Shown piece by piece: positions 1-56,014 of a stretch of DNA of 64,000 nucleotides. The position numbers and the translations under genes were made by a program. The notes beneath the pieces are model-generated. The model did not search any database, was not told the DNA's origin, and worked only from the letters and a program-made list of their open reading frames with translations. The stretch covers positions 2,723-66,722 of the forward strand of contig DAOSES010000007.1 of the NCBI GenBank assembly GCA_035363255.1, given 5' to 3'. Each line of letters opens with the position of its first letter. Position 1 is the stretch's first letter. This DNA comes from Caldisericia bacterium. GTDB lineage: Bacteria; Caldisericota; Caldisericia; UBA6126.

Positions 1-50
1 TTAACTCTTCAATGAAATAATAATTGCTTAGTTCCCCTCCCCTTTTTTGC

Positions 51-80
51 TTGACAAGCTTAGTTTTTTATTGATAACAT
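51..80 (+). promoter_or_regulatory. sigma70-like promoter, copy A of a duplicated promoter module
   Basis: TTGACA at 51-56, 18-nt spacer, TAACAT at 75-80, then AGTCATAC at 83-90. The same pyrimidine-rich lead-in, CTTGACAAGCT core and AGTCATAC recur at 1245-1311. Confidence 0.4.
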
Positions 81-137
81 TAAGTCATACACCTGTAGGA
101 GGAAGAGTTTGCATCGTTTTCAGCGGGGAAGTGAAGC

Positions 138-1271: not shown

Positions 1272-1301
1272 TTGACAAGCTAGTTATCATACTGCTAATA
1301 T
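1272..1301 (+). promoter_or_regulatory. sigma70-like promoter, copy B of the duplicated module, upstream of the RHS gene
   Basis: TTGACA at 1272-1277, 18-nt spacer, TAATAT at 1296-1301, AGTCATAC at 1304-1311 with the same spacing as copy A. Confidence 0.45.
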
Positions 1302-1360: not shown

Positions 1361-4300
1361 ATGGCGTGCTTTCCAGTTCTTTTCCTTTGGGTGCTATGGG
1401 GATTCCCCCTTATCTATATTTGTGCTCGAAAGGAGAATTTGTATGGTTTTGAAGCGTTCTTTTGTTCCGTCAAGAGAGAGAGAGAGAGAGCAATAGCTAA
1501 ATCGGCTTTTTCTTCTTGTCTTGCCAGTTTTCTGATCCTGGTGATGGTGTTTCTGATAGGCATTCCTGCCTCCTTTGCTCAAATGCTGGCTTCTCCCAGC
1601 TATCGCAGTAGTCGTTTTTATCCCCCGACCCTGCTGGATGAAGGAGACCCTTTAGCGGGGATGCACGGCAATGCAGGAAGCATGGCCTTTATGCCCGCTT
1701 CCCAGTGGAGTTCCCTGGCAGTGAATATGACCACCGGCAACAGCATGATGCTGGTTCAAGTCGTGAATTTGCCTGGCACTCCTCTGCCTTTGAGCTTGTC
1801 TCTGATTTACAATCATCGCAACAGCGAAGTAAATGTAGGACTGGGAGAAGGCTGGATGAGCTCGCTTCATACTGCTGTAGCAATCGATAATCAAACCCAG
1901 GATCTGCTGTGGCTGAGCCCTACGGGGGAGCAAGCGCTCTTTGAATGGGACAGCTTAAACTCCAGCTATCTCAATCCCTATGGTTTTGCTGGAAAAGCAG
2001 AAGTGCTGGGAACCGGGGATATAGCTATCACTCCTCTGGGGCAGGGTAGCATCCTCTATGCTTCGGATGGCAAACTTCAGCGCATCGAAGACAAAACCAG
2101 CAGCGGAGCCTTGGAAGTTACTTACGACAATGGGCGTCCTGTGGCTCTGGAAGATAGCCTCAGTGGTCGAAGCATTACTTTAGAATGGAATCTCTCGGGG
2201 CAACTCGTGGAGATTGAAGATCCTGCAGGATATGTATGGGAGATGTCTTATGATCAATTGGGAGAAAAACTCCTTTCCATTACTCCTCCCTCCAGTGAAG
2301 CTACTCCCCCTTCCTTCTCCTTTGGCTATGATGCCACTAGCGGTTTTCTAAACAGCCACGACGATTTGATGGGAAATACTTACGAGCTTTCCTATTACAG
2401 CAGTGGAAGCTTTACAGACTGGATGGAAAGCTGGACGGATCCTGCCAATGTCAGCAGTTCTTTTTCTTATGACACTTCCGTGCAGGGTTTCAGCATGGTC
2501 ACCACCTTTACGGATGGAGAAAATCAAGACCTTGTGTTTGGTTTTAACTCCGAAGGCTATTTGCTGAAGCAATGGCAGGAGGTAGGCCTGGAGCTGAGTT
2601 CCCAGCAATTGGGCTATAGCACGGAAGGTTGGCTCACGAGCGTGAAAGATGCCTACCAGAAAGAAACGACCCTGAGTTATGACAGTGTTGGGCATCTCAC
2701 CAGTATCCTGGGACCTGTTCCTTACCAGGGAGGAACTCCTTATCAAAAAGATTGGACCTACACCCCCAGCAACAGCCTGAATGGCTTGTTGACTGAGGAA
2801 AGCGAACGAGTTACTGCTGCGGTGTGGGTGGATACCACGCTTGCCTACAACGATCAAAATCACCCCATGTCCCCCACCCATATTACCAATGGCTTAAGTC
2901 AAACCACTGTCATAGCCTATCAAAGCGAGGGCTTTGTCTCCAGCGTCACTGTTCCTACCACCGGGGGCACAAAAAGTGCCAGCTACAGCTATAGTGCCCT
3001 GACTAAAGCCTTGAGCGGAAGTATCGATTTTGGAGGCAACGAAACCCTGTACAGCTACAAAAGCTCAGGTCTGCCCGATCAAATCTCTTCCTACGAAGGT
3101 TTAACTCTTCAGGGAAGATTGGTAAGTCAAGTGACCCATAGCTACAACATGCTTCATGCCCTGACCAGCACTTACAACAGCGTGGATCAGACCACCAGCA
3201 GCCAAAGCTACAATGCCAATGGCGCTCCGCTTAGCTCGGTCAGTGCGGGAGGATGTTCTTCCAGTCAGAGCTATGATCCTTCCACGAATCCAGCCTTGAT
3301 TCATTTTGGATCCCCGGGCTATCAAGCGTTGGCAGCGAGTAGCACCAATAGTCAAAGCCAGACTACTAGCTATGCCTATGATGCTTCGGGAAAGCTGAGT
3401 GAAGTCAGTGATTATCTGAATCGAGATACCGTCATGACTTATGATGGCTTTGGTCGTTTGGAAAGCCAGACCAATCCTTTTGGAAAGACTACTTCTTTCA
3501 GCTACAATCTCAACCATCAGTTGGTCGAACGAGAAGATGAAGGACAGGGCGTCACCAGCTTCACTTACGATGATGCGGGACGAATGACGGAAATGGATCA
3601 TCCCGTACAGGGCATCGTGGAATACAGCTACAATGTCCGAGGAGATCTGCTCTCCGATGAGCTGGGAAATTATACCTATGATCTCCTGGGGCGAGTCACT
3701 TCCCATCCCACCGAAGGAAGTATCAGTTATACCCCTGACGGTTTGATTCAAAGCCATAACAGTAACGATTATACCTACAATGCTGCAGGTAACATGACTT
3801 CCTGGGAAGGAAGCGCTGGAACGGTGAGTCTGGGCTATAGTGGTCAACAAGGCTATACTTCCCTGGGTCTTCCTTCCACGGCTTCGGGCAGTGGAGGCTA
3901 CTTAAGCTCGTATGCCTTCAGCTACAATAATCGCTTCTGGCTGAGTCAACTGCAAGTCAGCTCCAAAGGCAATCAAAGCTTCAGCTATGCCTGGAGCAGT
4001 GCGGGAGAATTGCAAAGCATCACCAATCCCAACAATACCACCCTGAGCCAGCAATGGAGCAACAAAAAAGTCAGTAGTTTGACGGTAAAGAATTCGATCA
4101 CTCAAGTGCAATGGTTGGGATCCACTCCCAGCTATAACGGCAATCAACAACTCGAAAGCTATGATACCGTGGTGTATGCAGGGCAAAATCCTCCCCTGAG
4201 TGAGAGCTTTGATTTGACCTATGATGCTTTGAATCGAGTCAGTACGGTCACTCGTGACAGTGACAATCAGGTCGTAACTTATAGCTACGATGCTTCCACG

Positions 4301-5554
4301 GGAAGACCCAGCAGTGTAAATCTTTCCGATGAGGGTACTTTTAGTTTCAGCTACCTGAGCAATGGAAAACTGGAGAGCGTGACCTATCCCGGGCAACAGG
4401 GTACCGAAGATTACAGCTATGACAGCGAGGGAAGACTGCAAAGCATTGAGTTGCCCGATAGCAGTGTCTTGAGTTTTTCACGTAATAGTCGCAAGGATTT
4501 GGCAAGTGCTCAATTTACCGATACTCAGAATACCGTGTATCGCTATGATTTTACCTATGACGATCAAGCCAACTTGATTTCTTCACTTTACAGTATCGAT
4601 GGCTTGCAGATGGAAAGCTGGAGCTATTACTGGGGGCCCCAGGGCTTGGAATATGCCAGTCGCAGTGGAGGCCAGGCCATCACTCAAAATTTCAGCACCG
4701 ACCCCAGTGGAAGAATCCTCTCCATGACCTATGGCAGTGCCAGCTATTCGGGAGAGCTTTATTACCATTATGATGCCCTGGGCAACACTACCCTTCTGAC
4801 CGATGCCGGGGGCAATCCCAAAGCCTCCTTTATCTACGATCTGCATACGGGGAAAATGATGGATAGCTGGAATCCCGACAATTTGGTGGTGATTAACCTG
4901 GAGCAGGGTATTTCAGGTAATCTGGGGTATGAATTACCTGAGGGGATAAAGGTATTAGTGCCACCTTGGAAATACAGACTGCTAACCCCCTTTGAGCTGT
5001 ATCTGTTCTTTCAAAACATACGCTATCCGGACGAAGAAGGCATGCTTATGCCGAGAGATCCAACCAGTCCTGCTTTCTTTGATGAAAGCGAGATCTCAAT
5101 TAGTGGTGGCATGCTACTTTCCTGGTGGAATATGTGGTTGGTGGCAGATGGTGTGAGTCATCAGAACACCAATAAGCCTTCTGAATTCGAGTTTTACGAT
5201 CCGAATAGGGTTTATATGGATAAAAAAAACGATCCATGGAGAGATTATAGAGTTGAACAGTATAAAAAAGCTCATGCAGCGTGTTTAAATCAATATGCAA
5301 CCTGTCTATCCTCTTGTACAAAACTCGGAAAATCAATTTTGGGAGGAATTAAGGATTTGTTGGCTGAAATTGTAGTTATTGGCACAGGGCTAGAAATACT
5401 TTCAAGAACTGCACTAGCTGCTCTATCAAAAGCTGCTATGTGGCTTGCGATTGCGATATATGCGATTAGTTTTTTCTGTGCTTTAGCTTGTCAAAGCGAT
5501 TTTACTGATTGTGCTTGGGAAGCTTGGGATAGGTGGAATCCTCTTGGACGATAA
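1361..5554 (+). CDS. RHS/YD-repeat polymorphic toxin, WapA-like secreted protein with a variable C-terminal tip
   Basis: 1397-aa ORF. Signal-like segment SAFSSCLASFLILVMVFLIGIPASFAQ. Many YD-repeat units (TYDGFGRLESQTNPFGKTTSFSYN, FTYDDAGRMTEMDHP, SYDSEGRLQSIELPD, YHYDALGNTTLLTDAGGN). The start is uncertain: ATG 1361 has no SD, and the SD-linked ATG 1443 is out of frame because of (AG)9. Confidence 0.9.
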   Translation: MACFPVLFLWVLWGFPLIYICARKENLYGFEAFFCSVKRERERAIAKSAFSSCLASFLILVMVFLIGIPASFAQMLASPSYRSSRFYPPTLLDEGDPLAGMHGNAGSMAFMPASQWSSLAVNMTTGNSMMLVQVVNLPGTPLPLSLSLIYNHRNSEVNVGLGEGWMSSLHTAVAIDNQTQDLLWLSPTGEQALFEWDSLNSSYLNPYGFAGKAEVLGTGDIAITPLGQGSILYASDGKLQRIEDKTSSGALEVTYDNGRPVALEDSLSGRSITLEWNLSGQLVEIEDPAGYVWEMSYDQLGEKLLSITPPSSEATPPSFSFGYDATSGFLNSHDDLMGNTYELSYYSSGSFTDWMESWTDPANVSSSFSYDTSVQGFSMVTTFTDGENQDLVFGFNSEGYLLKQWQEVGLELSSQQLGYSTEGWLTSVKDAYQKETTLSYDSVGHLTSILGPVPYQGGTPYQKDWTYTPSNSLNGLLTEESERVTAAVWVDTTLAYNDQNHPMSPTHITNGLSQTTVIAYQSEGFVSSVTVPTTGGTKSASYSYSALTKALSGSIDFGGNETLYSYKSSGLPDQISSYEGLTLQGRLVSQVTHSYNMLHALTSTYNSVDQTTSSQSYNANGAPLSSVSAGGCSSSQSYDPSTNPALIHFGSPGYQALAASSTNSQSQTTSYAYDASGKLSEVSDYLNRDTVMTYDGFGRLESQTNPFGKTTSFSYNLNHQLVEREDEGQGVTSFTYDDAGRMTEMDHPVQGIVEYSYNVRGDLLSDELGNYTYDLLGRVTSHPTEGSISYTPDGLIQSHNSNDYTYNAAGNMTSWEGSAGTVSLGYSGQQGYTSLGLPSTASGSGGYLSSYAFSYNNRFWLSQLQVSSKGNQSFSYAWSSAGELQSITNPNNTTLSQQWSNKKVSSLTVKNSITQVQWLGSTPSYNGNQQLESYDTVVYAGQNPPLSESFDLTYDALNRVSTVTRDSDNQVVTYSYDASTGRPSSVNLSDEGTFSFSYLSNGKLESVTYPGQQGTEDYSYDSEGRLQSIELPDSSVLSFSRNSRKDLASAQFTDTQNTVYRYDFTYDDQANLISSLYSIDGLQMESWSYYWGPQGLEYASRSGGQAITQNFSTDPSGRILSMTYGSASYSGELYYHYDALGNTTLLTDAGGNPKASFIYDLHTGKMMDSWNPDNLVVINLEQGISGNLGYELPEGIKVLVPPWKYRLLTPFELYLFFQNIRYPDEEGMLMPRDPTSPAFFDESEISISGGMLLSWWNMWLVADGVSHQNTNKPSEFEFYDPNRVYMDKKNDPWRDYRVEQYKKAHAACLNQYATCLSSCTKLGKSILGGIKDLLAEIVVIGTGLEILSRTALAALSKAAMWLAIAIYAISFFCALACQSDFTDCAWEAWDRWNPLGR
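1473..1490 (+). repeat. (AG)9 dinucleotide microsatellite in the 5' end of the RHS ORF
   Basis: Read directly: AGAGAGAGAGAGAGAGAG at 1473-1490, encoding RERER in the RHS frame. Confidence 0.95.
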
Positions 5555-5558
5555 TTTC

Positions 5559-6116
5559 ATGATTATTTCTATATATGTTTTTTGTATTCTATTTCTTTTT
5601 GTTTCGGCTTTTCTTTCTTTGCATATATTTAAACTACATGCTATCCAAAACTTATTTCAACAGCCTTCAAATCTCATACCTCTTAACAAAAAGAACTTTT
5701 CTGAAATCTTCCTATTGCTAATATTTTTGTTTTTCATTTGGCTGGGTGATGTTTTAACAAGTATTTTTTCTAATTCTTTCATACTCGGTGATAATTTTTT
5801 CTTACCTACTTTAATAATTTTATTACTACTCCATTTTGGATTTAACTATTGCGAAAAGAGTGCTTACTTAATCACTATTCAAAAGCAGGATTTCGAGGAT
5901 TCTCGCTACAATAAGGGTTTTACCATCGACCATGCCAATTATATAGTTTTGATTTTTTGTGCTCTTATCAATCGTTTTTTACCACACCCATGGAAATCAT
6001 GCTTCCTGCTACTCGGGATCCTCTATCACTGCGGTATTCGCATTTTCTATTGGATAGGCATAATGCGAACAATGAAGCAAACTCAAAATCATTCCTGTCA
6101 CACAGACAAATACTGA
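5559..6116 (+). CDS. multi-pass membrane protein, putative cognate immunity protein of the RHS tip
   Basis: ATG at 5559 lies 5 nt after the RHS stop (MIISIYVFCILF...). About 185 aa, AT-rich, several hydrophobic helices. The C-terminal helix motif is shared with ORFs 138-599 and 596-1138. Confidence 0.55.
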   Translation: MIISIYVFCILFLFVSAFLSLHIFKLHAIQNLFQQPSNLIPLNKKNFSEIFLLLIFLFFIWLGDVLTSIFSNSFILGDNFFLPTLIILLLLHFGFNYCEKSAYLITIQKQDFEDSRYNKGFTIDHANYIVLIFCALINRFLPHPWKSCFLLLGILYHCGIRIFYWIGIMRTMKQTQNHSCHTDKY

Positions 6117-6217: not shown

Positions 6218-6235
6218 GGTGGTGATTGAAAATTT

Positions 6236-6326
6236 AGTATTGCAGGGGAGCTGCTGACAGCGGCTGAGAGGGAGAGGTCTCCGACCCGTTTACCTGATCT
6301 GGATAATACCAGCGGAGGGAAGTGAA
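6236..6326 (+). promoter_or_regulatory. TPP (THI-box) riboswitch aptamer
   Basis: GGGGAGC...GCTGAGAGGGAGAGGTCTCCGACCCGTTTACCTGATCTGGATAATACCAGCGGAGGGAAG matches the conserved THI element cores (CUGAGA, ACCUGAUCUGGAUAAUxCCAGCG-AGGGAA). It sits upstream of a thiamine-precursor-type ABC transporter. Confidence 0.88.
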
Positions 6327-6358
6327 CCATTTTTTTTGTAATAGGAAAGCGCATCAAA

Positions 6359-7129
6359 TTGCCCGTAGGTCCTACGGTTGTGATCATTTCATTGCTATTG
6401 TTGGAGCTGATGGTATGGATTTTTCAGGTTCCCAAATGGCTTCTGCCTCCGCCATCCCGAGTGATCCATACTCTCTATCTGGACCGAAGCTTGCTCCTGG
6501 GGCATACTTTTACCACTTTGGTCGAAACTCTGAGCGGATATTCTCTGGCTTTGATTTTAGCTGTGTTGATTGCTTTGCTCATGGACGCTTCCAGTTTTAT
6601 ACGCAAAACCTTTTATCCTCTTATGATTGTCAGCCAAACTATTCCTATCATCACTATCGCCCCTCTTTTAGTGCTTTGGCTGGGTTTTGGGATGGGTCCG
6701 AAAATTGCTATTGTGGTCCTGATATGCTTCTTCCCTGTTTGCATGGCTCTTTTACATGGTTTGTCCCAGATGGATGGAGATTTTATGGATCTAATGAAAA
6801 CCATGGGAGCCTCTCGCAGAGATCTTTTCTTCCATTTAAAGCTCCCCTCCATACTCCCTTCTTTCTTTTCCGGGCTCAAGATTTCAGCCACCTACAGCGT
6901 GATGGGAGCAGTGATTGCTGAGTGGTTGGGAGCTAAAGCAGGCTTGGGAGAATACATGCGTCGCACCCTGCATACTTTTTCCATCGAAAGAACTTTTGCT
7001 GCCATTGTGATTGTCATTACCCTCAGCCTGCTCATGGTAGGGCTCATTCACCGCATAGCCTATCATACCATGCCATGGCTGATACACTCAAAAACACGTG
7101 AGGGAAGTTTTAAGGAGGAAGAACTGTGA
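6359..7129 (+). CDS. thiX: ABC transporter permease, NitT/TauT family, ThiX-like
   Basis: 256-aa polytopic protein with the permease EAA-like loop (MKTMGASRRDLFFHLKLPSILP). First gene after the TPP riboswitch. The TTG start at 6359 is uncertain. Confidence 0.75.
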   Translation: MPVGPTVVIISLLLLELMVWIFQVPKWLLPPPSRVIHTLYLDRSLLLGHTFTTLVETLSGYSLALILAVLIALLMDASSFIRKTFYPLMIVSQTIPIITIAPLLVLWLGFGMGPKIAIVVLICFFPVCMALLHGLSQMDGDFMDLMKTMGASRRDLFFHLKLPSILPSFFSGLKISATYSVMGAVIAEWLGAKAGLGEYMRRTLHTFSIERTFAAIVIVITLSLLMVGLIHRIAYHTMPWLIHSKTREGSFKEEEL

Positions 7130-8109
7130 AAGGAAAAATTATTGGCTTTTTGGTGCTTTGTCTTTGTTTTGCTTCTATAAGTTGTACGGGTGGTAAAAAA
7201 CAGCCCCTGGAGAAAATTACCCTTTTATTGGACTGGACCCCTAATACCAACCATACTGGTCTCTATTGCGCCAAAAACCTGGGCTACTTCGAGGAAGAAG
7301 GTTTGGAAGTGGATATTCTCCTGGCTCAGGAAGGAGGGACCTCTGCCCTGGTTTCGAGTGGAAAGGCTCCCTTTGGGGTGAGTTATCAGGAGGAAGTGAC
7401 CTATGCACGCTCAGAAAAGCTCCCGGTGGTAGCTATTGCAGCTATGGTGCAACACAACACTTCTGGCTTTGCAGCTCCAAGTGATCGAGGAGTTAAAACT
7501 CCCGCAGACTTTGAAGGAAAAAGATATGGAGGTTGGGGCTCTCCAGTGGAAACTGCCTTATTGAAAACCCTCGTTGGCAAATATGGAGGAGACTTTTCCA
7601 AGGTGGAAATGCTAAGCTCAGGGGCTGCAAGCTTTGTGGCCGCAGTGGAAAAAAACATGTTTGACTTTGCCTGGATCTACTATGGCTGGGATGGCATCCT
7701 GGCAGAACTTAGAGAAATCCCTTTGACCTTTTTTCTCTTGCAGGACGAAGACCCCCGTCTGGATTTCTATACCCCGGTGATCATCACAAGCGAAAAAACC
7801 ATTTCCGAACGACCAGAGTTTGTAAAAAGCTTTTTAAAAGCCGTCAGCCGTGGATATGATTATGCTATACAAAACCCCGATAAAGCTGCTGAAATCCTGT
7901 TGAAGGAAGTGCCTGAGCTGGATAAAGAGCTCATCTTTGCCAGTCAGCGTTATTTGTCACCCAGATATCAGGACGATGCACCTTACTGGGGATATATGAA
8001 GGAAGCAGTCTGGAACAATTATATGGAATGGTTGATTGAAAACGACTTATTGTCTGAAGCTATTGATATCAAGCAAGCCTATACCATCGAATTCCTGGCA
8101 CATGACTAA
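7126..8109 (+). CDS. thiY: NMT1/THI5-like substrate-binding lipoprotein, ThiY-like
   Basis: Lipoprotein signal (LCFASISCTGG). The NMT1-type N-terminus LLLDWTPNTNHTGLYCAKNLGYFEEEGLEVDIL. 4-nt overlap with the permease gene. Confidence 0.8.
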   Translation: MKGKIIGFLVLCLCFASISCTGGKKQPLEKITLLLDWTPNTNHTGLYCAKNLGYFEEEGLEVDILLAQEGGTSALVSSGKAPFGVSYQEEVTYARSEKLPVVAIAAMVQHNTSGFAAPSDRGVKTPADFEGKRYGGWGSPVETALLKTLVGKYGGDFSKVEMLSSGAASFVAAVEKNMFDFAWIYYGWDGILAELREIPLTFFLLQDEDPRLDFYTPVIITSEKTISERPEFVKSFLKAVSRGYDYAIQNPDKAAEILLKEVPELDKELIFASQRYLSPRYQDDAPYWGYMKEAVWNNYMEWLIENDLLSEAIDIKQAYTIEFLAHD

Positions 8110-8863
8110 ACTCTTCGCCGAAAAGCTGTCCAAAACGCTGGATGGTCTGGAGATTTTACAAAATATCTCGCTGGAGGTTGAGACTGGCTCTGTGACAAGT
8201 ATCATCGGCCCCAGTGGATGCGGAAAAAGCACCTTCCTGCACCTTCTGGCAGGGTTGATCTCTCCAGATCAAGGCAGGGTGCTGATTGACGGGCAGGATT
8301 ATACGGGCAAAACAGGTCGTATGGGCTACCTTCAGCAAAAGGATTGCCTGTTCCCCTGGAAAACCCTTTTGGCAAACGTCATTTTGCCCCTACAAATAAA
8401 AAAATGGCCCTTAGTTGAAGCCAGAGCCAAAGCGATGGATTATTTGAGTAAATTCAAGTTGGAAGGTTTTGAAAACTACTACCCCTCAGAGCTGTCTGGG
8501 GGGATGCGCCAACGGGCAGCCCTTTTGCGCACCTACCTATATCAAAGCGATATCCTGCTTTTGGACGAACCCTTTGCCCAATTGGATGCCATCAGCCGAA
8601 AAAGGATGCAGGAATGGCTTCTTGCCATGAAAGAGGACTTGGATTTGACCATTGTGATGATCACGCACGATATCGACGAGGCAGTCTTTCTTTCGGATCA
8701 GGTGGTGGTTTTTTCACCTTTGCCTGCCAGAATGGTGCTCAGTTTAAAGCTTCATCCCCCATCGATGCGAAAGCTAAGCTATGTAAGCTCTCCAGAGTTT
8801 GTGGAAAACAAAAGCAAAATCATGGATGCGCTTTATCATGAAGACACAGTAAACAAGGCTTAA
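8102..8863 (+). CDS. thiZ: ABC transporter ATP-binding protein, ThiZ-like
   Basis: Walker A GPSGCGKST, signature LSGGMRQR, Walker B ILLLDEPF. I chose ATG 8102 (MTKLFAEKL), which overlaps the thiY stop, rather than the track start at 8036. Confidence 0.85.
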   Translation: MTKLFAEKLSKTLDGLEILQNISLEVETGSVTSIIGPSGCGKSTFLHLLAGLISPDQGRVLIDGQDYTGKTGRMGYLQQKDCLFPWKTLLANVILPLQIKKWPLVEARAKAMDYLSKFKLEGFENYYPSELSGGMRQRAALLRTYLYQSDILLLDEPFAQLDAISRKRMQEWLLAMKEDLDLTIVMITHDIDEAVFLSDQVVVFSPLPARMVLSLKLHPPSMRKLSYVSSPEFVENKSKIMDALYHEDTVNKA

Positions 8864-20703: not shown

Positions 20704-21367
20704 ATTATCTTATGATCAAATTATCTTTTTTCTTGCTTTCACTGGACTTGTTTACTTTAAAAACATCAATGAAGCTCAAACCAATACTTCAGATTGGTTG
20801 ACTGGCATCCTGGTAACTATCTTTTGTGCATTGATCGCTTTACATCTAAGATCCAATACTCAGCTCTATGTAGCTCATCTATTGGGAGATATCAACATCA
20901 AGATCCAAAAGCAACTCAAACTTTTTTCATTTGATTTTATCGATTGGATAGGATTAATCCCACTGATCGGTCTTCAGATGGGCTGGGGAAGACCCATCAA
21001 CTCAGACAAAGCGATGAAAGGATCAAAACGACTCAACCGATGCATCATCCTGCTCTCAGGTTCGATTATTAATCTGTTGTTAGCCATACTGCTAAAGCTA
21101 TGTGTTAGCCCCTTGGAAGCTATATCATTAAACCTTGCAGCCATTACTGAGCTCTGGTCGAGAGTTCACCTTCATTTTGGACTCATCAATTTGCTTCCCT
21201 TGCCCCCCTTTGACGGATGGTATGTAGTGGGCGCTTTGTTCAAACGAAATATGAAACAAAATGACAATCGTAATTATGGCCTCATACTTTCATTGATCCT
21301 TTTCTATTTTGATATCATTCAAGATCTGATATTGGCAGTAAGTAGTCAGATCATGAGTTTATTCTAA
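20690..21367 (+). CDS. M50 (site-2 protease)-like membrane protein with a degenerate active site
   Basis: NLLPLPPFDGW motif and polytopic layout as in small M50B proteins. No HExxH; the aligned region reads HLRSNTQLYVAHLLGD. AAGGAG lies upstream of ATG 20690. Confidence 0.55.
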   Translation: MKIPKLSYDQIIFFLAFTGLVYFKNINEAQTNTSDWLTGILVTIFCALIALHLRSNTQLYVAHLLGDINIKIQKQLKLFSFDFIDWIGLIPLIGLQMGWGRPINSDKAMKGSKRLNRCIILLSGSIINLLLAILLKLCVSPLEAISLNLAAITELWSRVHLHFGLINLLPLPPFDGWYVVGALFKRNMKQNDNRNYGLILSLILFYFDIIQDLILAVSSQIMSLF

Positions 21368-24043
21368 TTTTTGGCCATACTCTTTCATGAGGATGCTGCT
21401 ATCTTCCTCATTGATCCAGCGATCTTGGTTGATATCACAAAGAAGGTGTAAAGAATTGGTGGAATCGACTCGTTGACCAAGATATCTTGAAATCAATCTT
21501 AGATCAAAGAAATCAACCTTGGCATCCTGATTTAGATCTCCGAGTAAAAATGAACGCCGACTCAGGGTCATTTCTGGAAGCGAGGGATAAACTCGTATAA
21601 GCTGTTTAGCTTTGTCTTTGATTGAGCATCTTGCGGTCCAGGAGACGCTTCCAAGACCTTTGGTGGCAAAACGCAACTTAGCCAACTGGTATCGCTGATT
21701 CTTCATTCCTTCATTCCATTTGCCTTCCCATTCGAGCTTCATCGATGTCTTGCGAATCACAGGTTTTTTGGCTTCCATCGGAAATTCAGCCAACTCAACT
21801 TCAAGATCGAGCATTTTACGATCGTCAATGTTCAGATATATTTCGAGTTGTTCTATTTCCTGCTCAAAAAAGTCCCAGTAAAGGGTAAGTTCAGCCTTAT
21901 CTCCAGACATAAGCAACTTCGGAGAAGCCAAAACAGGTTCTGAATAGACTTTGGAGTTTTCGTCAGAGAAAACAAACCTGGATGAAAAAGCTTCATCTCC
22001 TTGTTTGGCAGAGGATTCGAAACGTAGCATATATTCCCCGTTTGGTATATGCTCACCACTTTCCAAAGAACCATTCCATGAAAAACTATAGTATCCTGCG
22101 GGAACAGTGTTTAGCTCAAAAACGGGCTTACGACTCCAATCCAAACCATATTTATCACAAAGATAGACTTTCACAGTTCCGTAATTTGAATTTGAAGTTT
22201 GATCTTCAAATGTTTGCTCGCTCCCAGTATTTAAGGAAAACACCACATGCATGGATTCTGGAGATACTTGGGCTTCTTTAAGCATATGCAGTTTTGACAT
22301 TTGAATGTCTGAAACTCCCTTTTGAATTGCTAAGCTATTCTCTTTTTCCACGCTTTCTCGGTACAGTAGAAAGGGTAAATGCAGACTACCTATACGAATT
22401 AAGCCCTCATAGCGAGTTCTAATAAAGGTATTGTTTAAGGCTTCCCTTGGTTTAATGCTTATTTTAAGTGAGGATGTCTGAGCCTTTTTTATCATAATGC
22501 TGGAGGAGTCCAATTCTATAGCAAAAGGAAGCTCTTCACCTTGTTCGGTAAAAATTTCGACCTGTGCTGTATAAGTTGCATCAGTGTTTCCTTTGATGCT
22601 GATTGTTTTTTGGTAACCACTCTCCCAGTTTTCTATAACTAAAGCTCTTGGCTCTAAGAATGCTGGAGTTTTAAGTGCTTTGACAATATTGGCTTGACCT
22701 GCACCCTGAAGAGTGTAGGTGACGGGAAGCTTGTTGGCGGGATTGATAATCAGGTCAGCAGTGTTCATCAAGGATGATTTGATCTGATCCCCTGTCCACT
22801 CAGGTCTGACTTCTTTTATTAGAGCTACAATTCCTGTTATTACGGGTGATGCCATGGAAGTGCCACTCATCCCAGCATATGATCCATATTTTCGTGGAAG
22901 GGTTGAATGTATATCAACGCCTGGTGCAGATATTTCTGGTTTAAAGCAAGCATCAGGGGTGATACCCATGGAAGTGAATGAAGAGATCTTTGGGGTGTTT
23001 CCATCGCGATCATTGGATGCAGCCACTGAAAAAGCATCTTCAGTGATGGCGGGGGCTCCAGCTACCCAGGGCATATTTTTGCTTCTTGAGCCTGAGTTTC
23101 CAATCGCGGCCACTACAAATACTCCTGCATTTGAAGCATTTTTTACTGAACGATGCATCAAGGTGTCCCCTTTGGCAACAAAACCGTTCCCCACATGGCC
23201 CAGAGATAAGTTGATCACCTGGCATTTATCTTTTACCGATTGATCGATAGCTTTGTATATGTTTTCTGAAGGTATCCCTGGTTGTCTGCTTGAATTTACT
23301 TTATAAACCATTAAATCAGCATCAAAGGCCATCCCTTTGGAATTATTGTTTTGACCCAGACCTGCGGCTATTCCTGCCACATGTGTGCCATGGAAATTGG
23401 CATCAATGCCATAATTGCCTTCGCCAGAAAAATCAAGTCCTCCCTTGATTTTGTCTTTAAATTCAGGATGTTGAGCATCTATACCGGAATCAATGATTCC
23501 TACCAAAATCTTTTTTCCGCTGGCTTTTGTATCGTCATTGGCAGTCCAAATTTTGGTGACACCAGTAGATTCAGAAGCCTGTCGTCGAAAACTGCTAAAC
23601 TCGAGTCGAATATCATTTACATAGTAAACAGAGGGATGCAGAGCGATAGATGTCAAATCTTTGCCAGGAACGCGAATAGCAAAACCATGAATAACTTCAG
23701 AAAAATCATTACTGAATTCAATAGTTGGATTTTTTCTTTGTAGATGTTTGAATAGTGCTTGCTGTTTTTTGCCAAGTTGTTCACGATACAATTGAGCAAG
23801 GTTTTCTTCTTGTTCAAGGCTCAAATCGAGTCCAAGTTTTTTTTGTTGAGTCTGGTAACGAAGAATATATTTAGATACGGGATCATCCCTTAGCTCAACA
23901 ATCACAGGCACTTTAAGAGATGAGGTGCTTAGCTCCTGTACCAGTGCCTGGTCTATTTTTTGAATATTACTTTCTATTGTCCACGCTGGATGCGTAAAAA
24001 AGACAAAAAGCAAGGAAAGCAATATTGATATGATTTTTTTCAT
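21359..24043 (-). CDS. secreted subtilisin-like (S8) serine protease with a C-terminal cohesin-like module and dockerin
   Basis: Signal peptide MKKIISILLSLLFVFF. Catalytic motifs IIDSGID, HGTHVAGIAAG and GTSMASPVITG. The C-terminus has two DxNxD calcium-loop repeats. Confidence 0.9.
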   Translation of the reverse strand: MKKIISILLSLLFVFFTHPAWTIESNIQKIDQALVQELSTSSLKVPVIVELRDDPVSKYILRYQTQQKKLGLDLSLEQEENLAQLYREQLGKKQQALFKHLQRKNPTIEFSNDFSEVIHGFAIRVPGKDLTSIALHPSVYYVNDIRLEFSSFRRQASESTGVTKIWTANDDTKASGKKILVGIIDSGIDAQHPEFKDKIKGGLDFSGEGNYGIDANFHGTHVAGIAAGLGQNNNSKGMAFDADLMVYKVNSSRQPGIPSENIYKAIDQSVKDKCQVINLSLGHVGNGFVAKGDTLMHRSVKNASNAGVFVVAAIGNSGSRSKNMPWVAGAPAITEDAFSVAASNDRDGNTPKISSFTSMGITPDACFKPEISAPGVDIHSTLPRKYGSYAGMSGTSMASPVITGIVALIKEVRPEWTGDQIKSSLMNTADLIINPANKLPVTYTLQGAGQANIVKALKTPAFLEPRALVIENWESGYQKTISIKGNTDATYTAQVEIFTEQGEELPFAIELDSSSIMIKKAQTSSLKISIKPREALNNTFIRTRYEGLIRIGSLHLPFLLYRESVEKENSLAIQKGVSDIQMSKLHMLKEAQVSPESMHVVFSLNTGSEQTFEDQTSNSNYGTVKVYLCDKYGLDWSRKPVFELNTVPAGYYSFSWNGSLESGEHIPNGEYMLRFESSAKQGDEAFSSRFVFSDENSKVYSEPVLASPKLLMSGDKAELTLYWDFFEQEIEQLEIYLNIDDRKMLDLEVELAEFPMEAKKPVIRKTSMKLEWEGKWNEGMKNQRYQLAKLRFATKGLGSVSWTARCSIKDKAKQLIRVYPSLPEMTLSRRSFLLGDLNQDAKVDFFDLRLISRYLGQRVDSTNSLHLLCDINQDRWINEEDSSILMKEYGQKLE
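21362..21547 (-). other. dockerin-like module (two EF-hand-like repeats)
   Basis: GDLNQDAKVDFFDLRLISRYL ... CDINQDRWINEEDSSILMKEY. Confidence 0.7.
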
Positions 24044-24074
24044 AGTGAAAGATCCTCCCGTATACTGCAGTATG

Positions 24075-24557
24075 TTAAAGTTTATATCCGATATCCCTTA
24101 GAAAAGATTTTCGTTGTTTTTTTTGGTCTTCATTTTCAATGCCCTGGGGTGAAAAGCCATCAATAACCCCAAGGATGCCTTTGCCTTGATCGCTTTGTGC
24201 TATTATGACCTGTAGCGGATTGGCAGTGGCACAATAGATACGACAAACTTCAGGTATCGCCTTGATAGCATTGAGCACCTGGATGGGAAAAGCTTTATCA
24301 AGGAATATGATAAAGCTGTGCCCCGCGGATAATAGTTGAGCGTTTTCCTCTGCAAGATCGATTAATTCCTGCTTGTTTCCAGAAGATCGTATAAGGCATG
24401 GTCCAGAGGCTTCACAAAAACTCAAACCAAACTCAATCCCGCTGGAGGATTGCACCAAAGCTTCGTGCAAATCCTCGACGGTTTTAATAAAATGAGCTTG
24501 TCCAAGAATTAGATTGTATGCATTGGGATTGTGGATAGGTATTAGCTCAAATTTCAT
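24075..24557 (-). CDS. adenosine-specific kinase-like small protein (COG1839-type)
   Basis: LILGQAHFIKTVEDLHEAL...FCEASGPCLIRSSGN...AGHSFIIFL...CATANP...GILGVIDG pattern recalled for this family. The family assignment is from memory only. Confidence 0.6.
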   Translation of the reverse strand: MKFELIPIHNPNAYNLILGQAHFIKTVEDLHEALVQSSSGIEFGLSFCEASGPCLIRSSGNKQELIDLAEENAQLLSAGHSFIIFLDKAFPIQVLNAIKAIPEVCRIYCATANPLQVIIAQSDQGKGILGVIDGFSPQGIENEDQKKQRKSFLRDIGYKL

Positions 24558-24583
24558 GTGTCCCCCCTGGCGTAAATGTCATA

Positions 24584-27500
24584 TTAAATCATCTTGCCCA
24601 TTTCACGGGTGATGATCATCAAATCAGACATATCCACTCGTAGATCCTGGTTGAAATCACAACTTGCGTTAAAAGCTGCATCCCCCCTGTTAGTGCCATA
24701 AGCTTCATTGAAGATGGCATAATCATAGCGATCTACAATTTTGTCGTTGTTGATGTCTGCAAGGAGATAGTCACGATTCTGGATGCGGATACTTGGCATC
24801 ATAGGCTTGACTCTCTGGCTTTCTCCTGTATCTAGTATGATTCTAAAGCCTTTGCTAGAAAAGCGGACTCTGCCTGCGCCAATGGTCCTGAAAACGAGGG
24901 TAAAACTCTTTTGGTCAAGGAAAGTACTGAGGGGCATTTGATCAAAGTAGAACTTGACCTTGATAATACCATTGTTGTCGTCTTCATCTATGTCAAAATC
25001 AAATTCGTCTTCGATATCTTTCATAAAACCATTGAGCCGGAAACTACGATACATTAATCTTGCGGGATCATAATTTAACTCAAATTCGATGGAAGAGACT
25101 GCTTTTGCATTTTGTTCCAGCGATAAAAGAGAACCGAAGTTAAGGTCCAGGGGAAACTCTTCATACTCGCGAAAAATTGCAAGTGAGGAGAAAACTGCAG
25201 TAATGGGATCTGGAACATCAGAACTTATTACCTGGAAAGCTTGCTTTTTTTCAACGTAGTTGGTGGTTTTATATGCTTTTTCTTTGCTATCATAATAAAG
25301 TTTGGTCATGCTGACAGAAATGAAATAGGAACCTTTAGGGAGGAAATAGCGATTTTCTCGATTTTTTCCATTCCAGGGTATTGAGTATTCTCCAACCATA
25401 ACATTGCTAAGGGATAAAATACTGTCCCACTCTTCTCCTTCATTGTCAACAATGGCTATCTTGACGTTGCCATAATTTCTTCCAATGTTCATAGTGGAAT
25501 TTCCACTTGGAACAGTTACTACGGTGCCAGCATTCATAGAAAAATTGATCAAAACGGAATCGGTAAGCTCTGCCGATTGAGTAGAGAACTGGAGCTGTGC
25601 AGTGGAAAGACGTATGTCAGATATGGGCTCAGGCAGGTTGGATACATTATCTCTACAAATAACAAAGGGAATGTGGAGATCTGAGCCAAGTTTGACAATT
25701 CCTTCGTATCTCCCTCTAAGAAAACGTTCTTTGTCTACTTTAAATTTGACTGTAAACTGGGCATCTTTTGAAGGTTCAAGGGAAAGATTTGTTGAATCAA
25801 AGCTAAGCTCGATTGGCGAAACTTCGCCATCCAGTAAAAATACTTGATAATTTAAGTCAAAGCTTTGTTTTTCGGCTTTTGCATTACTTACTGTAAAAAC
25901 CTGTTCAAACTCTTGGGAAGCGTTTGAAAACACAAGTGCTCTTGGCTCTATAAAGGCAGGGGTAAAGATTGCTCTATCAATTCTGGCAGATCCGGCACCT
26001 TGTAGAAAAAAAGTGATGGGCATACGGTTTGCGGGGTTGATAAGAAGCTCTGCAGTGTTCATAAATGCGGATTTAATCTGATTAAAATCCCATTTGGGTC
26101 GTGCTTCTTTTAGCAGAGTAGCCAAACCTGCCATGGAGGGGCTTGCCATGGAAGTACCGCTGGCATAGCCATACTTACCTCCGGGGAAAGTAGATAGAAT
26201 ATTGTCTCCGGGAGTTGAAATTTCTGGTTTGAATGCAGCGTCAGGGGTGGGACCCATGGAAGAAAAATCAGCAATCACTTTCAAGTTTTGGTACAAAACT
26301 TCGAGTGAATAGGTCTTCTGGCTTTCTGCTTTTAAAAGAAGTCCATCCTCAAGACTGAGCATGAGAGTTGGAGGAAGGTAAGCCACTTGTGCGGCAGTTT
26401 CGTTTCTTGCTGCATCCAAAATACCAGGATTGATATAGTCCCCAGAAGTATGATTATAAAGGATGACTCCTACAGCCCCTTTGGCATAAGCATTTTCCAA
26501 CTTTTCACGAAAGGTGATGCCAGTGGGGAGAGGTCCTCTTTGAATGAGAGCAATTTTATCTTTTATGTCAAGATCTTTCAGTTCACCCACCGAGCCAAAT
26601 CCAGCAGGCACAATAGCTTTTTCAAGGAGTTGATTGGTGAATTGGGGAGTGGGGGAAACTTGAACTGCAGGCATGACTACCTTGGAAGCTTCCTGAGGAG
26701 TTAGAATAAGACTTGCCTCGATAGTACGGTCGTTGGAAGCTGCTACAGAAAAAGCTTCTTCCACAATCGCAGGGGATCCTGCAGTCCAGGGTAAATCTGA
26801 TCTTCGGGAGCCATCATTACCAATGGCAACCACCACCAAAACTCCTGCCTTGGAGGCATTGGCTATGGAACGGTGATAAGCACTGCTACCTTTTGAATTT
26901 TCGCCTCCCGCAAAGCCAAGAGACATATTGATAACATCGCATTTATCAGCAACTGAGCGATCGATGGCAGCGATGACATTTCTTGCACCTTGTTGTTCTG
27001 GGGTAAACACTCGATATGCCATAAGGTCGGCTTCGTAAGCCATTCCTCGATATTTGTCTGTTTTTCCTTGACCGGCTGAAATGCCTGCTACGTGGGTTCC
27101 GTGGCCTTCTTCATCTCTGTAGTCACCGTTTCCTTTGACAAAATTGTAGCCTCCACGAACTTTCTTGGGACGGTTGAACTCTGAATGATCCTTGTCAAGA
27201 CCAGTATCTATGATACCAATAAGTTTGTTTCTGCCTGTAAGTCGGGAGATACCTTGCTCAGAAAATCCATTCCAGGCTTCACTTGAACCGGTAGTGCCAG
27301 CCATAATTTCACGCACTGGCTGAAATTTGGGACGGTCATCGTGTATAAACAAGATTCTTTGATCGTTAAGAAGTTTTGACAGGTCTCTGCCTTGAATCTC
27401 AGCACTCATGGCATTGAGCACAAGAGTGATATGCTCCTGAGGAATGAGCTTGATATTTCGTTGACTAAGGGAGCTTAAGAAATCTTCCTGTTTGGACATT

Positions 27501-27772
27501 AATATGTTTTGATATTCACTTGTTTCGTTTAAAATAGCGTTTTGTTTTATCTTAACATCTTCAAAAACTTGATCCTGCTTTGTTTTTGACCAAAACTCCA
27601 CTCCAGGATCATCTTTGAATTCAATCAATATCTGGACCCATTCCTGACTCTCGCCATATTCATTTAGAAAGACAGGGTCAATTTTGGGAGCTGATTTTTC
27701 GTGAGCTGAGGAAATATTCAGCGAAAACAACATAAAAAATAAGACAAAAAAAGCCATACATTTATTAAACAT
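24584..27772 (-). CDS. secreted S8 serine protease with a PA domain, a cohesin-like module and a C-terminal dockerin
   Basis: Catalytic motifs IIDTGLD, GHGTHVAGISAG and GTSMASPSMAG. PA-like insert (IALIQRGPLPTGITFREKLENAYAKGAVGVILYN). GGAGGAG lies 8 nt upstream of ATG 27772 (MFNKCMAFFVLFF). Confidence 0.9.
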   Translation of the reverse strand: MFNKCMAFFVLFFMLFSLNISSAHEKSAPKIDPVFLNEYGESQEWVQILIEFKDDPGVEFWSKTKQDQVFEDVKIKQNAILNETSEYQNILMSKQEDFLSSLSQRNIKLIPQEHITLVLNAMSAEIQGRDLSKLLNDQRILFIHDDRPKFQPVREIMAGTTGSSEAWNGFSEQGISRLTGRNKLIGIIDTGLDKDHSEFNRPKKVRGGYNFVKGNGDYRDEEGHGTHVAGISAGQGKTDKYRGMAYEADLMAYRVFTPEQQGARNVIAAIDRSVADKCDVINMSLGFAGGENSKGSSAYHRSIANASKAGVLVVVAIGNDGSRRSDLPWTAGSPAIVEEAFSVAASNDRTIEASLILTPQEASKVVMPAVQVSPTPQFTNQLLEKAIVPAGFGSVGELKDLDIKDKIALIQRGPLPTGITFREKLENAYAKGAVGVILYNHTSGDYINPGILDAARNETAAQVAYLPPTLMLSLEDGLLLKAESQKTYSLEVLYQNLKVIADFSSMGPTPDAAFKPEISTPGDNILSTFPGGKYGYASGTSMASPSMAGLATLLKEARPKWDFNQIKSAFMNTAELLINPANRMPITFFLQGAGSARIDRAIFTPAFIEPRALVFSNASQEFEQVFTVSNAKAEKQSFDLNYQVFLLDGEVSPIELSFDSTNLSLEPSKDAQFTVKFKVDKERFLRGRYEGIVKLGSDLHIPFVICRDNVSNLPEPISDIRLSTAQLQFSTQSAELTDSVLINFSMNAGTVVTVPSGNSTMNIGRNYGNVKIAIVDNEGEEWDSILSLSNVMVGEYSIPWNGKNRENRYFLPKGSYFISVSMTKLYYDSKEKAYKTTNYVEKKQAFQVISSDVPDPITAVFSSLAIFREYEEFPLDLNFGSLLSLEQNAKAVSSIEFELNYDPARLMYRSFRLNGFMKDIEDEFDFDIDEDDNNGIIKVKFYFDQMPLSTFLDQKSFTLVFRTIGAGRVRFSSKGFRIILDTGESQRVKPMMPSIRIQNRDYLLADINNDKIVDRYDYAIFNEAYGTNRGDAAFNASCDFNQDLRVDMSDLMIITREMGKMI
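24587..24769 (-). other. dockerin-like module
   Basis: ADINNDKIVDRYDYAIFNEAYG ... CDFNQDLRVDMSDLMIITREMG. Confidence 0.75.
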
Positions 27773-27799
27773 TAAAAACTCCTCCAAAAACAAACAAAA

Positions 27800-29120: not shown

Positions 29121-29753
29121 TTAAGGCTCATTTTTATTGAAACATCTGCCATCGATGCACTTGATGGCTTCGCTTTCCACTTTATCGGGGCTTTGATTTC
29201 CATCGATAAGAACTATGCGATCACTGTTTAGTCGGGCTAAATCCAAATATCTACTTCGAATGTCTTTTAGCAATTCCATTTGTTCAAAATATTCCTTTTC
29301 CCTGTCATCTATTCGATGCAAGGACCTTTCCGGATCTACATCAAGCAAAATAGTCAAATCCGGTGTCAACATATCCAACAATATCTGAGATATAGTATAA
29401 ACTGTTTTTAAATTTTTTTCATCTTTTCCCTGGTAGGCTATAGTAGAATCAACGTAACGATCGCATAGCACCCAATAAGCTTGGGAAAGATAGGTCTTGA
29501 GCTGCTCAACATGAAGAGCTCTGTCAGCAGAAAACAAGAATAACTCAGCAAGGAAATTAGATTGATATGCTTTTTCTGGTGAGAGATAAGTTCTAATAAA
29601 CTTACCTATAATGGAGGAAGTGGGTTCTGAGGTTAAATAAACTTGTTTTTGTCGCTGAATTAGGTATTTTTCGAGTTTCGTAATTAAAGTACTTTTACCC
29701 GAACCGTCTATCCCTTCGATGGTAATGAAAAAAGATTTAGACATCTTGATCAT
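29121..29753 (-). CDS. tmk: thymidylate kinase
   Basis: P-loop IEGIDGSGKST, DRY motif (LCDRYVDSTIAYQG). Confidence 0.9.
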   Translation of the reverse strand: MIKMSKSFFITIEGIDGSGKSTLITKLEKYLIQRQKQVYLTSEPTSSIIGKFIRTYLSPEKAYQSNFLAELFLFSADRALHVEQLKTYLSQAYWVLCDRYVDSTIAYQGKDEKNLKTVYTISQILLDMLTPDLTILLDVDPERSLHRIDDREKEYFEQMELLKDIRSRYLDLARLNSDRIVLIDGNQSPDKVESEAIKCIDGRCFNKNEP

Positions 29754-51069: not shown

Positions 51070-51114
51070 TGTTCAACTCCTAACCAGACCAGGGGGTCTG
51101 AAATTAAAATCGGC

Positions 51115-51996
51115 TTACTTTTTGTTGTTTTCACTTGGGAAATCAACACTCACAGTTTGAGAAGAGGCTTCCCATCCAACTTTAGCTCCTAAAAACTCGG
51201 ACACATAACGAACTGGGACAAAAGTGCGTCCCTGGACAATTACTGGGGCTACATCGAGAGGTATAGTCTTGGTATATTTTGGTCCAATATTGATCCTGGC
51301 TTCTTTTTTGTCTACCCAGAAATAAAGCGTCATATCGCCCAAAATGTAGCTTACACGTCGGGTAGCATTATCCCAAGCAATCTGGGCATTTAGTGCTTCG
51401 CCAATAAAACGGAGTGGAACCATAGTGCGTCCACTGGTGATAAAGGGAGGAACATCGAGGGGAACATTTTTGGTTTCTTTGCTTCCAGCAACGGAGGCTT
51501 GCTTGGAATTAATCTGCATTTTAACCAATTTCTTTTCAACCACTATCGAATAGACACTAACAGTTTCTTTGAGTTTGGTGTCTGAAGTGGGCCAGATTTC
51601 GATTGTAACTTTTGCTTTATCGCCTATTTTTGCAGTATCCATGGGATGCATGGTAATGTGCATTTCTTCATTACGATTGGGTTGAACTCTATTTGGTGAT
51701 TCCCCTTCGTCCAAAAAACAGATATTTGAATAGCAAAATTGAGTAAACCAATCTGCATCTTGAGGACCCTTAGGAAACTTTTTTTCTGTGATTTTAGCAA
51801 ATAGAGTAGACACTCTGCGAGTATTATTTGTGAAATAAAAATAAGCTGCGCCAGCTATACCAGGGGTAACGGGCAGAAAAAAATCAGATTCACTAGCTGC
51901 ACTTTGATTGGACAAACCCTGGGTAGAGCTAAACAAAGTCGCAGATACCATGAGTAAGCAAACTAAAAACAAACTAAAAAATTTACGCATTTCCAT
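51115..51996 (-). CDS. secreted protein with two CuAO-N-type repeats
   Basis: Signal peptide. VPPFITSGRTMVPLRFIGEALNAQIAW and VAPVIVQGRTFVPVRYVSEFLGAKVGW. Confidence 0.8.
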   Translation of the reverse strand: MEMRKFFSLFLVCLLMVSATLFSSTQGLSNQSAASESDFFLPVTPGIAGAAYFYFTNNTRRVSTLFAKITEKKFPKGPQDADWFTQFCYSNICFLDEGESPNRVQPNRNEEMHITMHPMDTAKIGDKAKVTIEIWPTSDTKLKETVSVYSIVVEKKLVKMQINSKQASVAGSKETKNVPLDVPPFITSGRTMVPLRFIGEALNAQIAWDNATRRVSYILGDMTLYFWVDKKEARINIGPKYTKTIPLDVAPVIVQGRTFVPVRYVSEFLGAKVGWEASSQTVSVDFPSENNKK

Positions 51997-52044
51997 TCAC
52001 ACTCCTCAACTAAAATTCTGAATGAATCTAATTTATATGCACTA

Positions 52045-52084
52045 ACCCATCGGTTAAACCTTGATCAAGGTTTAACCGATGGGT
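52045..52084. repeat. perfect 40-nt palindrome (18-bp stem, GATC centre) in the intergenic region
   Basis: ACCCATCGGTTAAACCTTGATCAAGGTTTAACCGATGGGT, read directly. No U-run follows on the minus strand. Confidence 0.95.
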
Positions 52085-52144
52085 CCTCGTCACTACGAAG
52101 CTATACACAAAATACAAGGCAAGGCAAGACTTGGTTCAAGTATT

Positions 52145-55804: not shown

Positions 55805-55985
55805 TCTTAATACTCTCCTTTTCAAAAAGAGATTAGCTACCATAAACCCAACAAATTTTTTACAATCACGACTTAAATATATAAAATATCCATGCCCAAA
55901 GTCAAGCATCCAGCAAAACCATTTTCATTTTTGGCCTATTTTTTGCTTTACTGCTATAAAATGAGGTGAGAAATCTTGCAATACC

Positions 55986-56014
55986 TTGATATTTACTATA
56001 TTAAACAATATAAT
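55986..56014 (+). promoter_or_regulatory. candidate promoter of the SpoIID-domain/PQQ-propeller operon
   Basis: TTGATA at 55986-55991, 17-nt spacer, TATAAT at 56009-56014. Confidence 0.5.

Follow-up and report, generated by a model that had tools for sequence, protein, structure and literature searches.

In a 64,000-nucleotide (nt) stretch of contig DAOSES010000007.1 from a Caldisericia bacterium (hereafter the window, meaning this whole stretch), nine consecutive AG dinucleotides, (AG)9, lie between a well-placed start codon and the body of a gene encoding an RHS protein. We consider it likely that this repeat is a contingency tract, altered through slipped-strand mispairing, within the part of a Sec-exported RHS polymorphic toxin gene that encodes the signal peptide, and with similar confidence we regard the tract as a working reversible switch. 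Judged from its reading frames, the window assembly is in the OFF state, or is low at most through a poorly placed TTG at position 1439. We are less sure, though on balance inclined to believe, that a whole family of such toxins, in an uncultured, anaerobic and probably Caldisericota-related lineage, is gated by a conserved (AG)n tract in the charged N-terminal region (n-region) of the signal peptide.

The site at 1428–1496 has the sequence GAAAGGAGAATTTGTATGGTTTTGAAGCGTTCTTTTGTTCCGTCA(AG)9CAATAG. The frame that starts at ATG 1443, downstream of the Shine-Dalgarno (SD) sequence AGGAG (1431–1435), reads MVLKRSFVPSREREREQ and runs through the tract (1473–1490) to TAG 1494–1496, 17 codons in total; a preliminary sequence-only reading had placed all of these elements, and its positions were exact to the base. 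The RHS open reading frame (ORF; 1361–5554, 1397 amino acids) is in a different frame. When one AG unit is removed in silico, ATG 1443 yields MVLKRSFVPSRERERAIAKSAFSSCLASFLILVMVFLIGIPASFAQML..., continuous with the RHS body, so that translation re-derives the fusion that had been claimed. Eight, 11 or 14 units would thus give the ON state in the window, and with nine ATG 1443 does not share the RHS frame. The sequence-only reading did not mention a TTG at 1439 that is in frame and lies 3 nt past GGAG. Since (AG)9 is the only dinucleotide run of at least five units within the 64 kb and has no counterpart in 100 dinucleotide-preserving shuffles (in which the count of (AG)7 was 0), the tract is not a chance feature.

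Judged by hydropathy and an S-x-A motif, the predicted ON peptide combines a charged n-region, a hydrophobic core of 15 residues and the sequence S-F-A/Q, the slash marking the predicted cleavage site. For residues 16–33, Kyte-Doolittle 19-residue windows peak at 2.57. Two other signal types were considered and rejected: a twin-arginine translocation (Tat) signal, as the RERE stretch contains neither consecutive arginines nor a Tat consensus, and a lipoprotein signal, as the Cys of SSCLAS varies among relatives and there is no conserved lipobox cysteine.

Is the tract peculiar to this gene? A protein search with the predicted ON N terminus as query returned two clusters and protein-database searches overall returned only four, whose members supplied extra alleles. 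Metagenome contigs, scanned with aligned sequences of the mature N-terminal domain, yielded twelve loci, and the remainder came from the cluster members and their contigs. The resulting set of relatives comprises 28 loci from about a dozen independent metagenome assemblies, with 44–97% protein identity. One of them (L002; handles of this kind denote single loci) comes from JAWDGN, the metagenome of the anaerobic chloroform-dechlorinating enrichment SC05-UT (PMC11324032). As a GTDB scan with one genome per species for the RHS N-terminal domain found no relative, the family is known from metagenome contigs only. The DXS gene of the window is 67% identical to that of an uncultured Caldisericota metagenome-assembled genome and 51% identical to those of the next best genomes, and by this single marker the organism is probably related to that phylum.

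All 28 relatives carry a pure (AG)n at the same position, 90–95 nt 5′ of a conserved ...SFAQ-ML junction, and with the window included the tract is uninterrupted in 29 of 29 loci. Every relative with a 5′ end (27 loci) has an SD, a spacer of 4–9 nt, an ATG, a leader of 10–14 codons and then the tract. The SD is of the type (A/T)AAGGAG(A/G/T) in the 28 loci with a 5′ end (window included), two of which have weaker versions (CTTGGAGG and AAAGGGGA). Although the leaders differ among loci (MVLKRSFVPS, MKFVLHSNVVPSFS, MFFKKTNVELPSFS, MHSSLVRSAVASFS, MKLYLVNFEGPPFS, MLADSRNCATVSFS, MAIGLQVVKSFPF and MNSRLAHSVVPSSS; variants that end in ..VPS(FS) just 5′ of the tract include MKFVLHSNVVPSFS), the tract and the portion downstream are conserved, and an S-x-A-Q motif (SFAQ, SLAQ or SYAQ) was present in all loci examined for it. 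The ON reading consists of leader, (Arg-Glu)n, Ser-rich stretch, hydrophobic core, SFAQ and RHS body; the fusion predicted for (AG)8 in the window has the same layout as that read in ON relatives. Because the Arg-Glu tract lies in the charged n-region, in-frame changes of its length should be tolerated without harm to the signal. Intact relatives have TAG or TAA directly 3′ of the tract and a second stop (TAG) ~40 nt downstream, and in-silico translation of all loci places the end of both OFF frames of intact loci within ~16 codons of the tract (in L001 the OFF reading is ...RERESNS, followed by a stop).

The relatives contain 4, 5, 7, 8, 9, 10, 11, 12 or 13 AG units, and all differences in tract length are whole units. 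The SD-preceded ATG is in frame with the RHS body (ON) in L003, L004, L006 and L028 (13 units), L010, L029–L032 and L034 (7), L037 (5), and L005, L007 and L008 (4). It is out of frame (OFF) in L001 (13), L027 (12), L013 (11), the window, L002 and L014 (9), L009, L011, L012 and L035 (8), and L036 (5). Outside this division stand L025 (8 units) and L026 (10), which are decayed and have further frameshifts, and L033 (7), whose 5′ end is cut. Four of the five short tracts of 4 or 5 units are in frame (L005, L007, L008 and L037, not L036), and both states occur among long tracts of 7 or more units.

Near-identical alleles differ solely, or almost solely, at the tract. L036 and L031 share 98.7% identity across 2083 nt, and their single indel is one of 4 nt in the tract; this two-unit change, from 5 units (L036, OFF) to 7 (L031, ON), flips the state. 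The window and L001 align over 649 nt at 96.9% identity with two indels, an 8-nt change in the tract and one base in a T run. L027 and L001 are one truncated locus in two sibling samples, with 12 and 13 units, respectively, and the tract is the sole indel within the first 3.5 kb. Tract length also differs between L010 (7 units) and both L011 and L012 (8 units). The sequence-only reading had suggested that repeat lengths at related loci be compared. Rather than nine units in every relative, or a repeat that is missing from some, the comparison revealed a tract in 28 of 28 that varies from 4 to 13 units with both ON and OFF alleles, which supports the phase variation by slippage that had been proposed. 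The accompanying suggestion that the assembly captures an OFF or low state also appears sound, as nine units are out of frame and TTG 1439 is a poor alternative start.

Where would translation of the RHS protein begin? The called ORF opens at ATG 1361, which had been described as lacking an SD and as adding an odd hydrophobic extension. There is no SD-like sequence in the 16 nt before this ATG, and the extension is indeed hydrophobic and is not conserved. Among OFF relatives, L009, L011 and L012 lack any ATG, GTG or TTG in frame ahead of the hydrophobic core. Read from ATG 1443, the window leader ends in ..FVPS, comparable to the ..VVPSFS and ..ELPSFS of others. Since ATG 1361 lacks both an SD and conservation, these OFF relatives lack an in-frame start and the ..VPS motif is common to several leaders, the real start is, by these comparisons, ATG 1443, and ATG 1361 is a chance by-product of the frame at 9 units. 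The absence of an in-frame start in L009, L011 and L012 further argues that the SD-preceded ATG is the start used by the family and that the OFF state removes the signal peptide. TTG 1439, in frame at 9 units and 3 nt from GGAG, could give a low product at best.

Upstream of the RHS start lie a sigma-70-like promoter and a small ORF (Table 1). The promoter sequence at 1272–1301 is unchanged in L001, and TTGACA is found 170–230 nt 5′ of the RHS ATG in 14 of 16 loci examined. Most loci examined also have an SD-preceded small ORF of 35–55 codons between promoter and RHS start; the N-terminal halves of the products are often alike (MTHSxSVLI..NFEIFQECYAI or MNKLL..) and the hydrophobic tails differ. 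The small ORF may encode a leader peptide or a small membrane protein, or it may be a translational-coupling device. An Rfam scan found nothing in the 5′ region, its sole match in the window being a thiamine pyrophosphate (TPP) riboswitch at 6234–6338.

If the tract is a switch, how would it operate? Transcription would start from the TTGACA/TAATAT promoter at 1272–1301, and ribosomes would load at AGGAG and initiate at ATG 1443. Given 8, 11 or 14 units, they would translate the leader, (Arg-Glu)n, the hydrophobic core and SFA/Q, and then an RHS protein of ~1320 amino acids, which would be exported. With 9 units, as in the window, they would stop at TAG 1494 after 17 codons; for 10 or 13 units the stop would be TAA 1498. 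Whenever replication added or removed whole AG units, the exported toxin would be turned on or off in a heritable and reversible manner. The anatomy, the conservation and length polymorphism of the tract, ON and OFF alleles with intact genes, and purifying selection across OFF alleles are observed; we infer slippage as the mechanism, how fast switching occurs, Sec export with cleavage, the functions of toxin and immunity protein and adaptive bet-hedging. Three states are also possible, depending on the frame that the tract selects: high expression from ATG, low expression from a poor start codon in frame, and off. Several loci of one sample each have their own leader and tract length and could be paralogues within a single genome; a population would then display different toxin repertoires stochastically.

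The RHS frame of OFF loci is open over long distances: the window has 1323 open codons and L035 has 1317, L012 has at least 1213, and L011 has at least 768. Between L011 and L012, which are both OFF with 8 units, synonymous divergence (dS) is 0.25 and the ratio of nonsynonymous to synonymous divergence (dN/dS) is 0.11 over 768 codons; dN/dS in other locus pairs is 0.12–0.25. As the ratio is low between OFF alleles, the RHS protein appears to have been under selection along lineages that are now OFF, which fits reversible switching and not permanent loss.

Several observations weigh against a regulated switch. Decayed remnants are numerous in the family: L001 and L027 break off at the window equivalent of 1898 (L001 10445), after ~105 mature codons; L026 and L029–L034 have internal deletions; L025, L028 and L037 have further frameshifts; and L036 is among the members with other frameshifts or deletions. 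Some OFF states may be first steps of decay. L003, L004 and L006, which are identical alleles from three samples, all have 13 units; in consensus sequences, then, the tract is not extremely unstable. Three alleles with the leader type of the window have 9, 12 and 13 units, and none of them is an ON allele (8, 11 or 14). In addition, the signal peptide predicted from hydropathy and the S-x-A motif is unusually long at 45 residues.

The remnants have features of their own. A recurrent internal deletion joins mature amino acid ~62 to amino acid ~578 and gives a product that ends in ...PLSLSTP. The ...LSLSTP end is found in different allele types, and its recurrence might reflect recombination at a repeated motif. 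L035 (1501–5742) and L026 are one locus, between a gene for an LRP1-like propeller protein and rpsO, in sample 3300076802. This sample holds both an intact call of 1413 amino acids with (AG)8 (L035) and a deleted remnant with (AG)10 (L026), which indicates strain-level heterogeneity of RHS loci within the community.

The main rival explanation is that the tract is a mutational weak spot in RHS genes that are being lost and that OFF alleles are young pseudogenes. The many members decayed through truncations, internal deletions and multiple frameshifts fit this explanation, as does the finding that, among distinct alleles of 7 or more units, ON states are not clearly above the one-third expected at random. 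We nevertheless consider it unlikely. Unselected repeats decay, whereas this tract is pure and in the same position although leaders and bodies have diverged to 44–70% identity; four distinct OFF genes retain 768 to 1323 open codons, two OFF alleles have diverged at a dN/dS of 0.11, and a tract mutable enough to be the usual first hit could equally revert. We give little credence to a further explanation, in which the 9-unit state is expressed from ATG 1361 or TTG 1439 and the tract tunes the level or the N terminus of the product. At 9 and 12 units both codons share the frame of the RHS body, initiation at TTG 1439 would retain the hydrophobic core, and the small upstream ORF of L035 is in frame with RHS at 8 units. 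However, ATG 1361 has no SD and opens an extension that is not conserved, the usual spacing from SD to start is 5–9 nt and the 3 nt available to TTG 1439 is well below this, the OFF loci L009, L011 and L012 offer no start codon in frame ahead of the hydrophobic core, and the leader similarity (..VPS) is found in the ATG 1443 frame and not in the 1361 frame.

It would be surprising if the frame were instead rescued at the RNA level, by RNA polymerase slippage or ribosomal frameshifting on the GAGAGAG run. Repeats can promote transcriptional slippage in other systems, but these are mostly A or T runs, and slippage on dinucleotide runs has, to our knowledge, not been described. Moreover, the length differences are present in the DNA of independent assemblies and stops directly follow the tract in both OFF frames. 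Equally hard to credit is the view that the 17-codon ORF is a regulatory upstream ORF or leader peptide, or that the count of nine is an assembly or sequencing error, alternatives that the sequence-only reading had itself raised. In the window alone, a short ORF with a good SD does resemble a leader peptide, but 16 related loci join the SD-preceded ATG in frame to the RHS signal peptide; relatives do not maintain the short ORF as a conserved separate frame, and its stop does not hold a conserved position regardless of tract length. As for error, about a dozen independent assemblies contain tracts that differ by whole units and are always pure, and the tract, at 8–26 nt, is well within the 150-nt Illumina reads of at least one assembly.

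What would be switched? Pfam identified RHS_repeat (7.8e-41, 5 stretches) and DUF6531 (1.1e-10) in the RHS ORF. Between the RHS body and the L004 protein, identity is 59% across 1086 aligned positions. With the L035 protein there is 39% identity over mature amino acids 1–1114 and the last ~210 amino acids are unrelated; this combination of a conserved body and an unrelated end is the layout of a polymorphic toxin. The boundary of window/L035 homology follows a common ...WNPxN segment, and a regular-expression search of the RHS protein for the core-end motif PxxxxDPxG(L/W/F) gave no match. For the C-terminal domain, Pfam gave nothing, and the PDB sequence matches, with a best E-value of 0.29, are not credible. 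The ORF at 5559–6116 encodes several hydrophobic segments; no Pfam family was found for its 185-amino-acid product, and it is a candidate immunity gene by position.

Similar small multi-pass membrane proteins are encoded elsewhere. In addition to 5559–6116, they occur at 138–599 and 596–1138 of the window (+ strand), two orphan copies 5′ of the RHS gene, and at L001 10768–11274. Their weak similarity is limited to a short C-terminal stretch, by eye approximately R-(I/V)-x-x-W-x-W-(K/R), and they look like a family of candidate immunity proteins. The promoter is likewise part of a repeated module (window 32–90 and 1250–1301; L001 9793–9850) that consists of a C/T-rich run, a T run and then CTTGACAAGCT...; the promoter itself has a copy at window 51–80. 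The module precedes both the orphan membrane-protein pair and the RHS operon. Since homology between the window and L001 starts there, it may mark a cassette boundary.

The closest analogue of the window locus is, by likeness of design, Helicobacter pylori oipA, which, like sabA and babA, has CT dinucleotide repeats in the signal-peptide coding region that change by slipped-strand mispairing (PMC10564699). In both oipA and the RHS gene, a pure dinucleotide repeat lies soon after the start, within the signal-peptide coding region, and the number of units sets the frame. ON alleles retain the signal peptide's conserved C terminus (FWLHA in oipA, SFAQ here), and natural isolates carry many repeat numbers, both ON and OFF. 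The proteins are unrelated, oipA encoding an outer-membrane adhesin rather than an RHS toxin. The CT repeat is read as Leu/Ser, whereas AG is on the coding strand here and gives Arg-Glu in a charged n-region; H. pylori is a host-adapted pathogen and not a free-living or bioreactor anaerobe; and, unlike in oipA, the tract described here is common to a whole paralogous family with different leaders. Repeats in signal-peptide coding regions are also known from Neisseria, as CTCTT repeats in opa and a G run in pilC. These genes resemble the RHS loci in undergoing translational phase variation through a leader-coding repeat, and opa is a multigene family whose members switch independently. They differ in the repeat unit and its position (the hydrophobic core in opa) and in encoding adhesins, not toxins.

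As a protein, the RHS product resembles the WapA-type Sec-exported RHS polymorphic toxins of the Gram-positive bacteria Bacillus subtilis and Streptococcus suis (PMC12704120). The likenesses are an N-terminal Sec-type signal (predicted here), DUF6531, an RHS/YD shell, a variable C-terminal domain (here a candidate toxin) and a small downstream gene. WapA differs in having a cell-wall-binding/LysM domain, whereas Pfam gives only DUF6531 and RHS_repeat here, and the core-end motif PxxxxDPxGL is missing from the window protein.

The proposed mechanism is that of classical phase variation; what would be new is its occurrence in Sec-exported RHS toxins and in a probably Caldisericota-related lineage. 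Most known cases of repeat-based phase variation concern surface structures of pathogens adapted to a host, and our literature searches found no report of repeat-based switching of WapA, RHS or other polymorphic toxins. If our interpretation is correct, interbacterial RHS toxins would, as far as we know, gain their first example of a repeat-based contingency system, and we know of few such systems outside host-adapted pathogens. Bet-hedging through contingency loci would then reach into microbial warfare and into a little-known phylum, in a never-cultured environmental or bioreactor anaerobe. Gene callers start these genes at spurious upstream codons or split them (P0001, P0002, P0005, P0013 and P0014), and such miscalled starts conceal both the signal peptide and the switch. 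Public SC05-UT reads (Illumina SRX21660399 and PacBio SRX21660401) make the switching hypothesis directly testable.

Table 1. Features of the RHS locus (window positions unless another locus is named)
Feature	Position	Strand	Details
Sigma-70-like operon promoter	1272–1301	+	TTGACA, 18-nt spacer, TG-extended TAATAT; 10 of 12 consensus positions
Small upstream ORF, 38 amino acids	1336–1452	+	SD GGAG 1327–1330; TGA 1450–1452 overlaps the RHS start region
Counterparts of the small ORF	L002 2317–2439; L009 2712–2852; L005 955–1062; L008 2696–2845		
Apparently accidental 5′ extension of the RHS frame	1361–1442	+	Without SD; leader in the 1361 frame unlike other leaders
Shine-Dalgarno sequence AGGAG	1431–1435	+	Context AAAGGAGA; ATG begins 7 nt later
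Start codon ATG and n-region leader codons (MVLKRSFVPS)	1443–1472	+	Frame common to other leaders
(AG)9 putative slippage tract	1473–1490	+	(Arg-Glu)n in the ON frame; 30 nt after ATG 1443
Rest of predicted signal peptide, RHS frame	1490–1582	+	AIAKSAFSSC, hydrophobic core LASFLILVMVFLIGI, c-region PASFA/Q
Stops closing both OFF frames	1494–1500	+	TAG 1494–1496, TAA 1498–1500
Conserved RHS body (DUF6531 and YD/RHS repeats)	1583–4924	+	Pfam, homologue alignment
Variable C-terminal domain (candidate toxin) and stop codon	4925–5554	+	~210 amino acids, hydrophobic C-terminal segment
Candidate immunity gene	5559–6116	+	185-amino-acid multi-pass membrane protein; starts 4 nt past the RHS stop

Other features of the window lie apart from the RHS locus. 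The TPP riboswitch at 6234–6338 (+ strand; 69.2 bits, E-value 1.6e-11) is followed at 6359–8863 by genes for an ATP-binding cassette (ABC) transporter with an NMT1/THI5-like binding protein, and by these assignments this is an ordinary thiamine-related uptake operon. Two mononucleotide runs are found inside genes that are in frame, a G8 run (30072–30079) in a class A penicillin-binding protein gene (29750–32272, minus strand) and a C8 run (60680–60687) in a beta-propeller/dockerin ORF of 1589 amino acids (59080–63849). A cluster of very large predicted extracellular proteins is encoded at 21359–27793 and 46249–63849. It includes three subtilases, two carrying dockerin and one carrying PKD, along with NHL/beta-propeller proteins that have copper-amine-oxidase-N domains, a protein with a SpoIID domain and a dockerin-bearing PQQ-propeller protein. 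For a probably Caldisericota-related genome, dockerin domains are of note.

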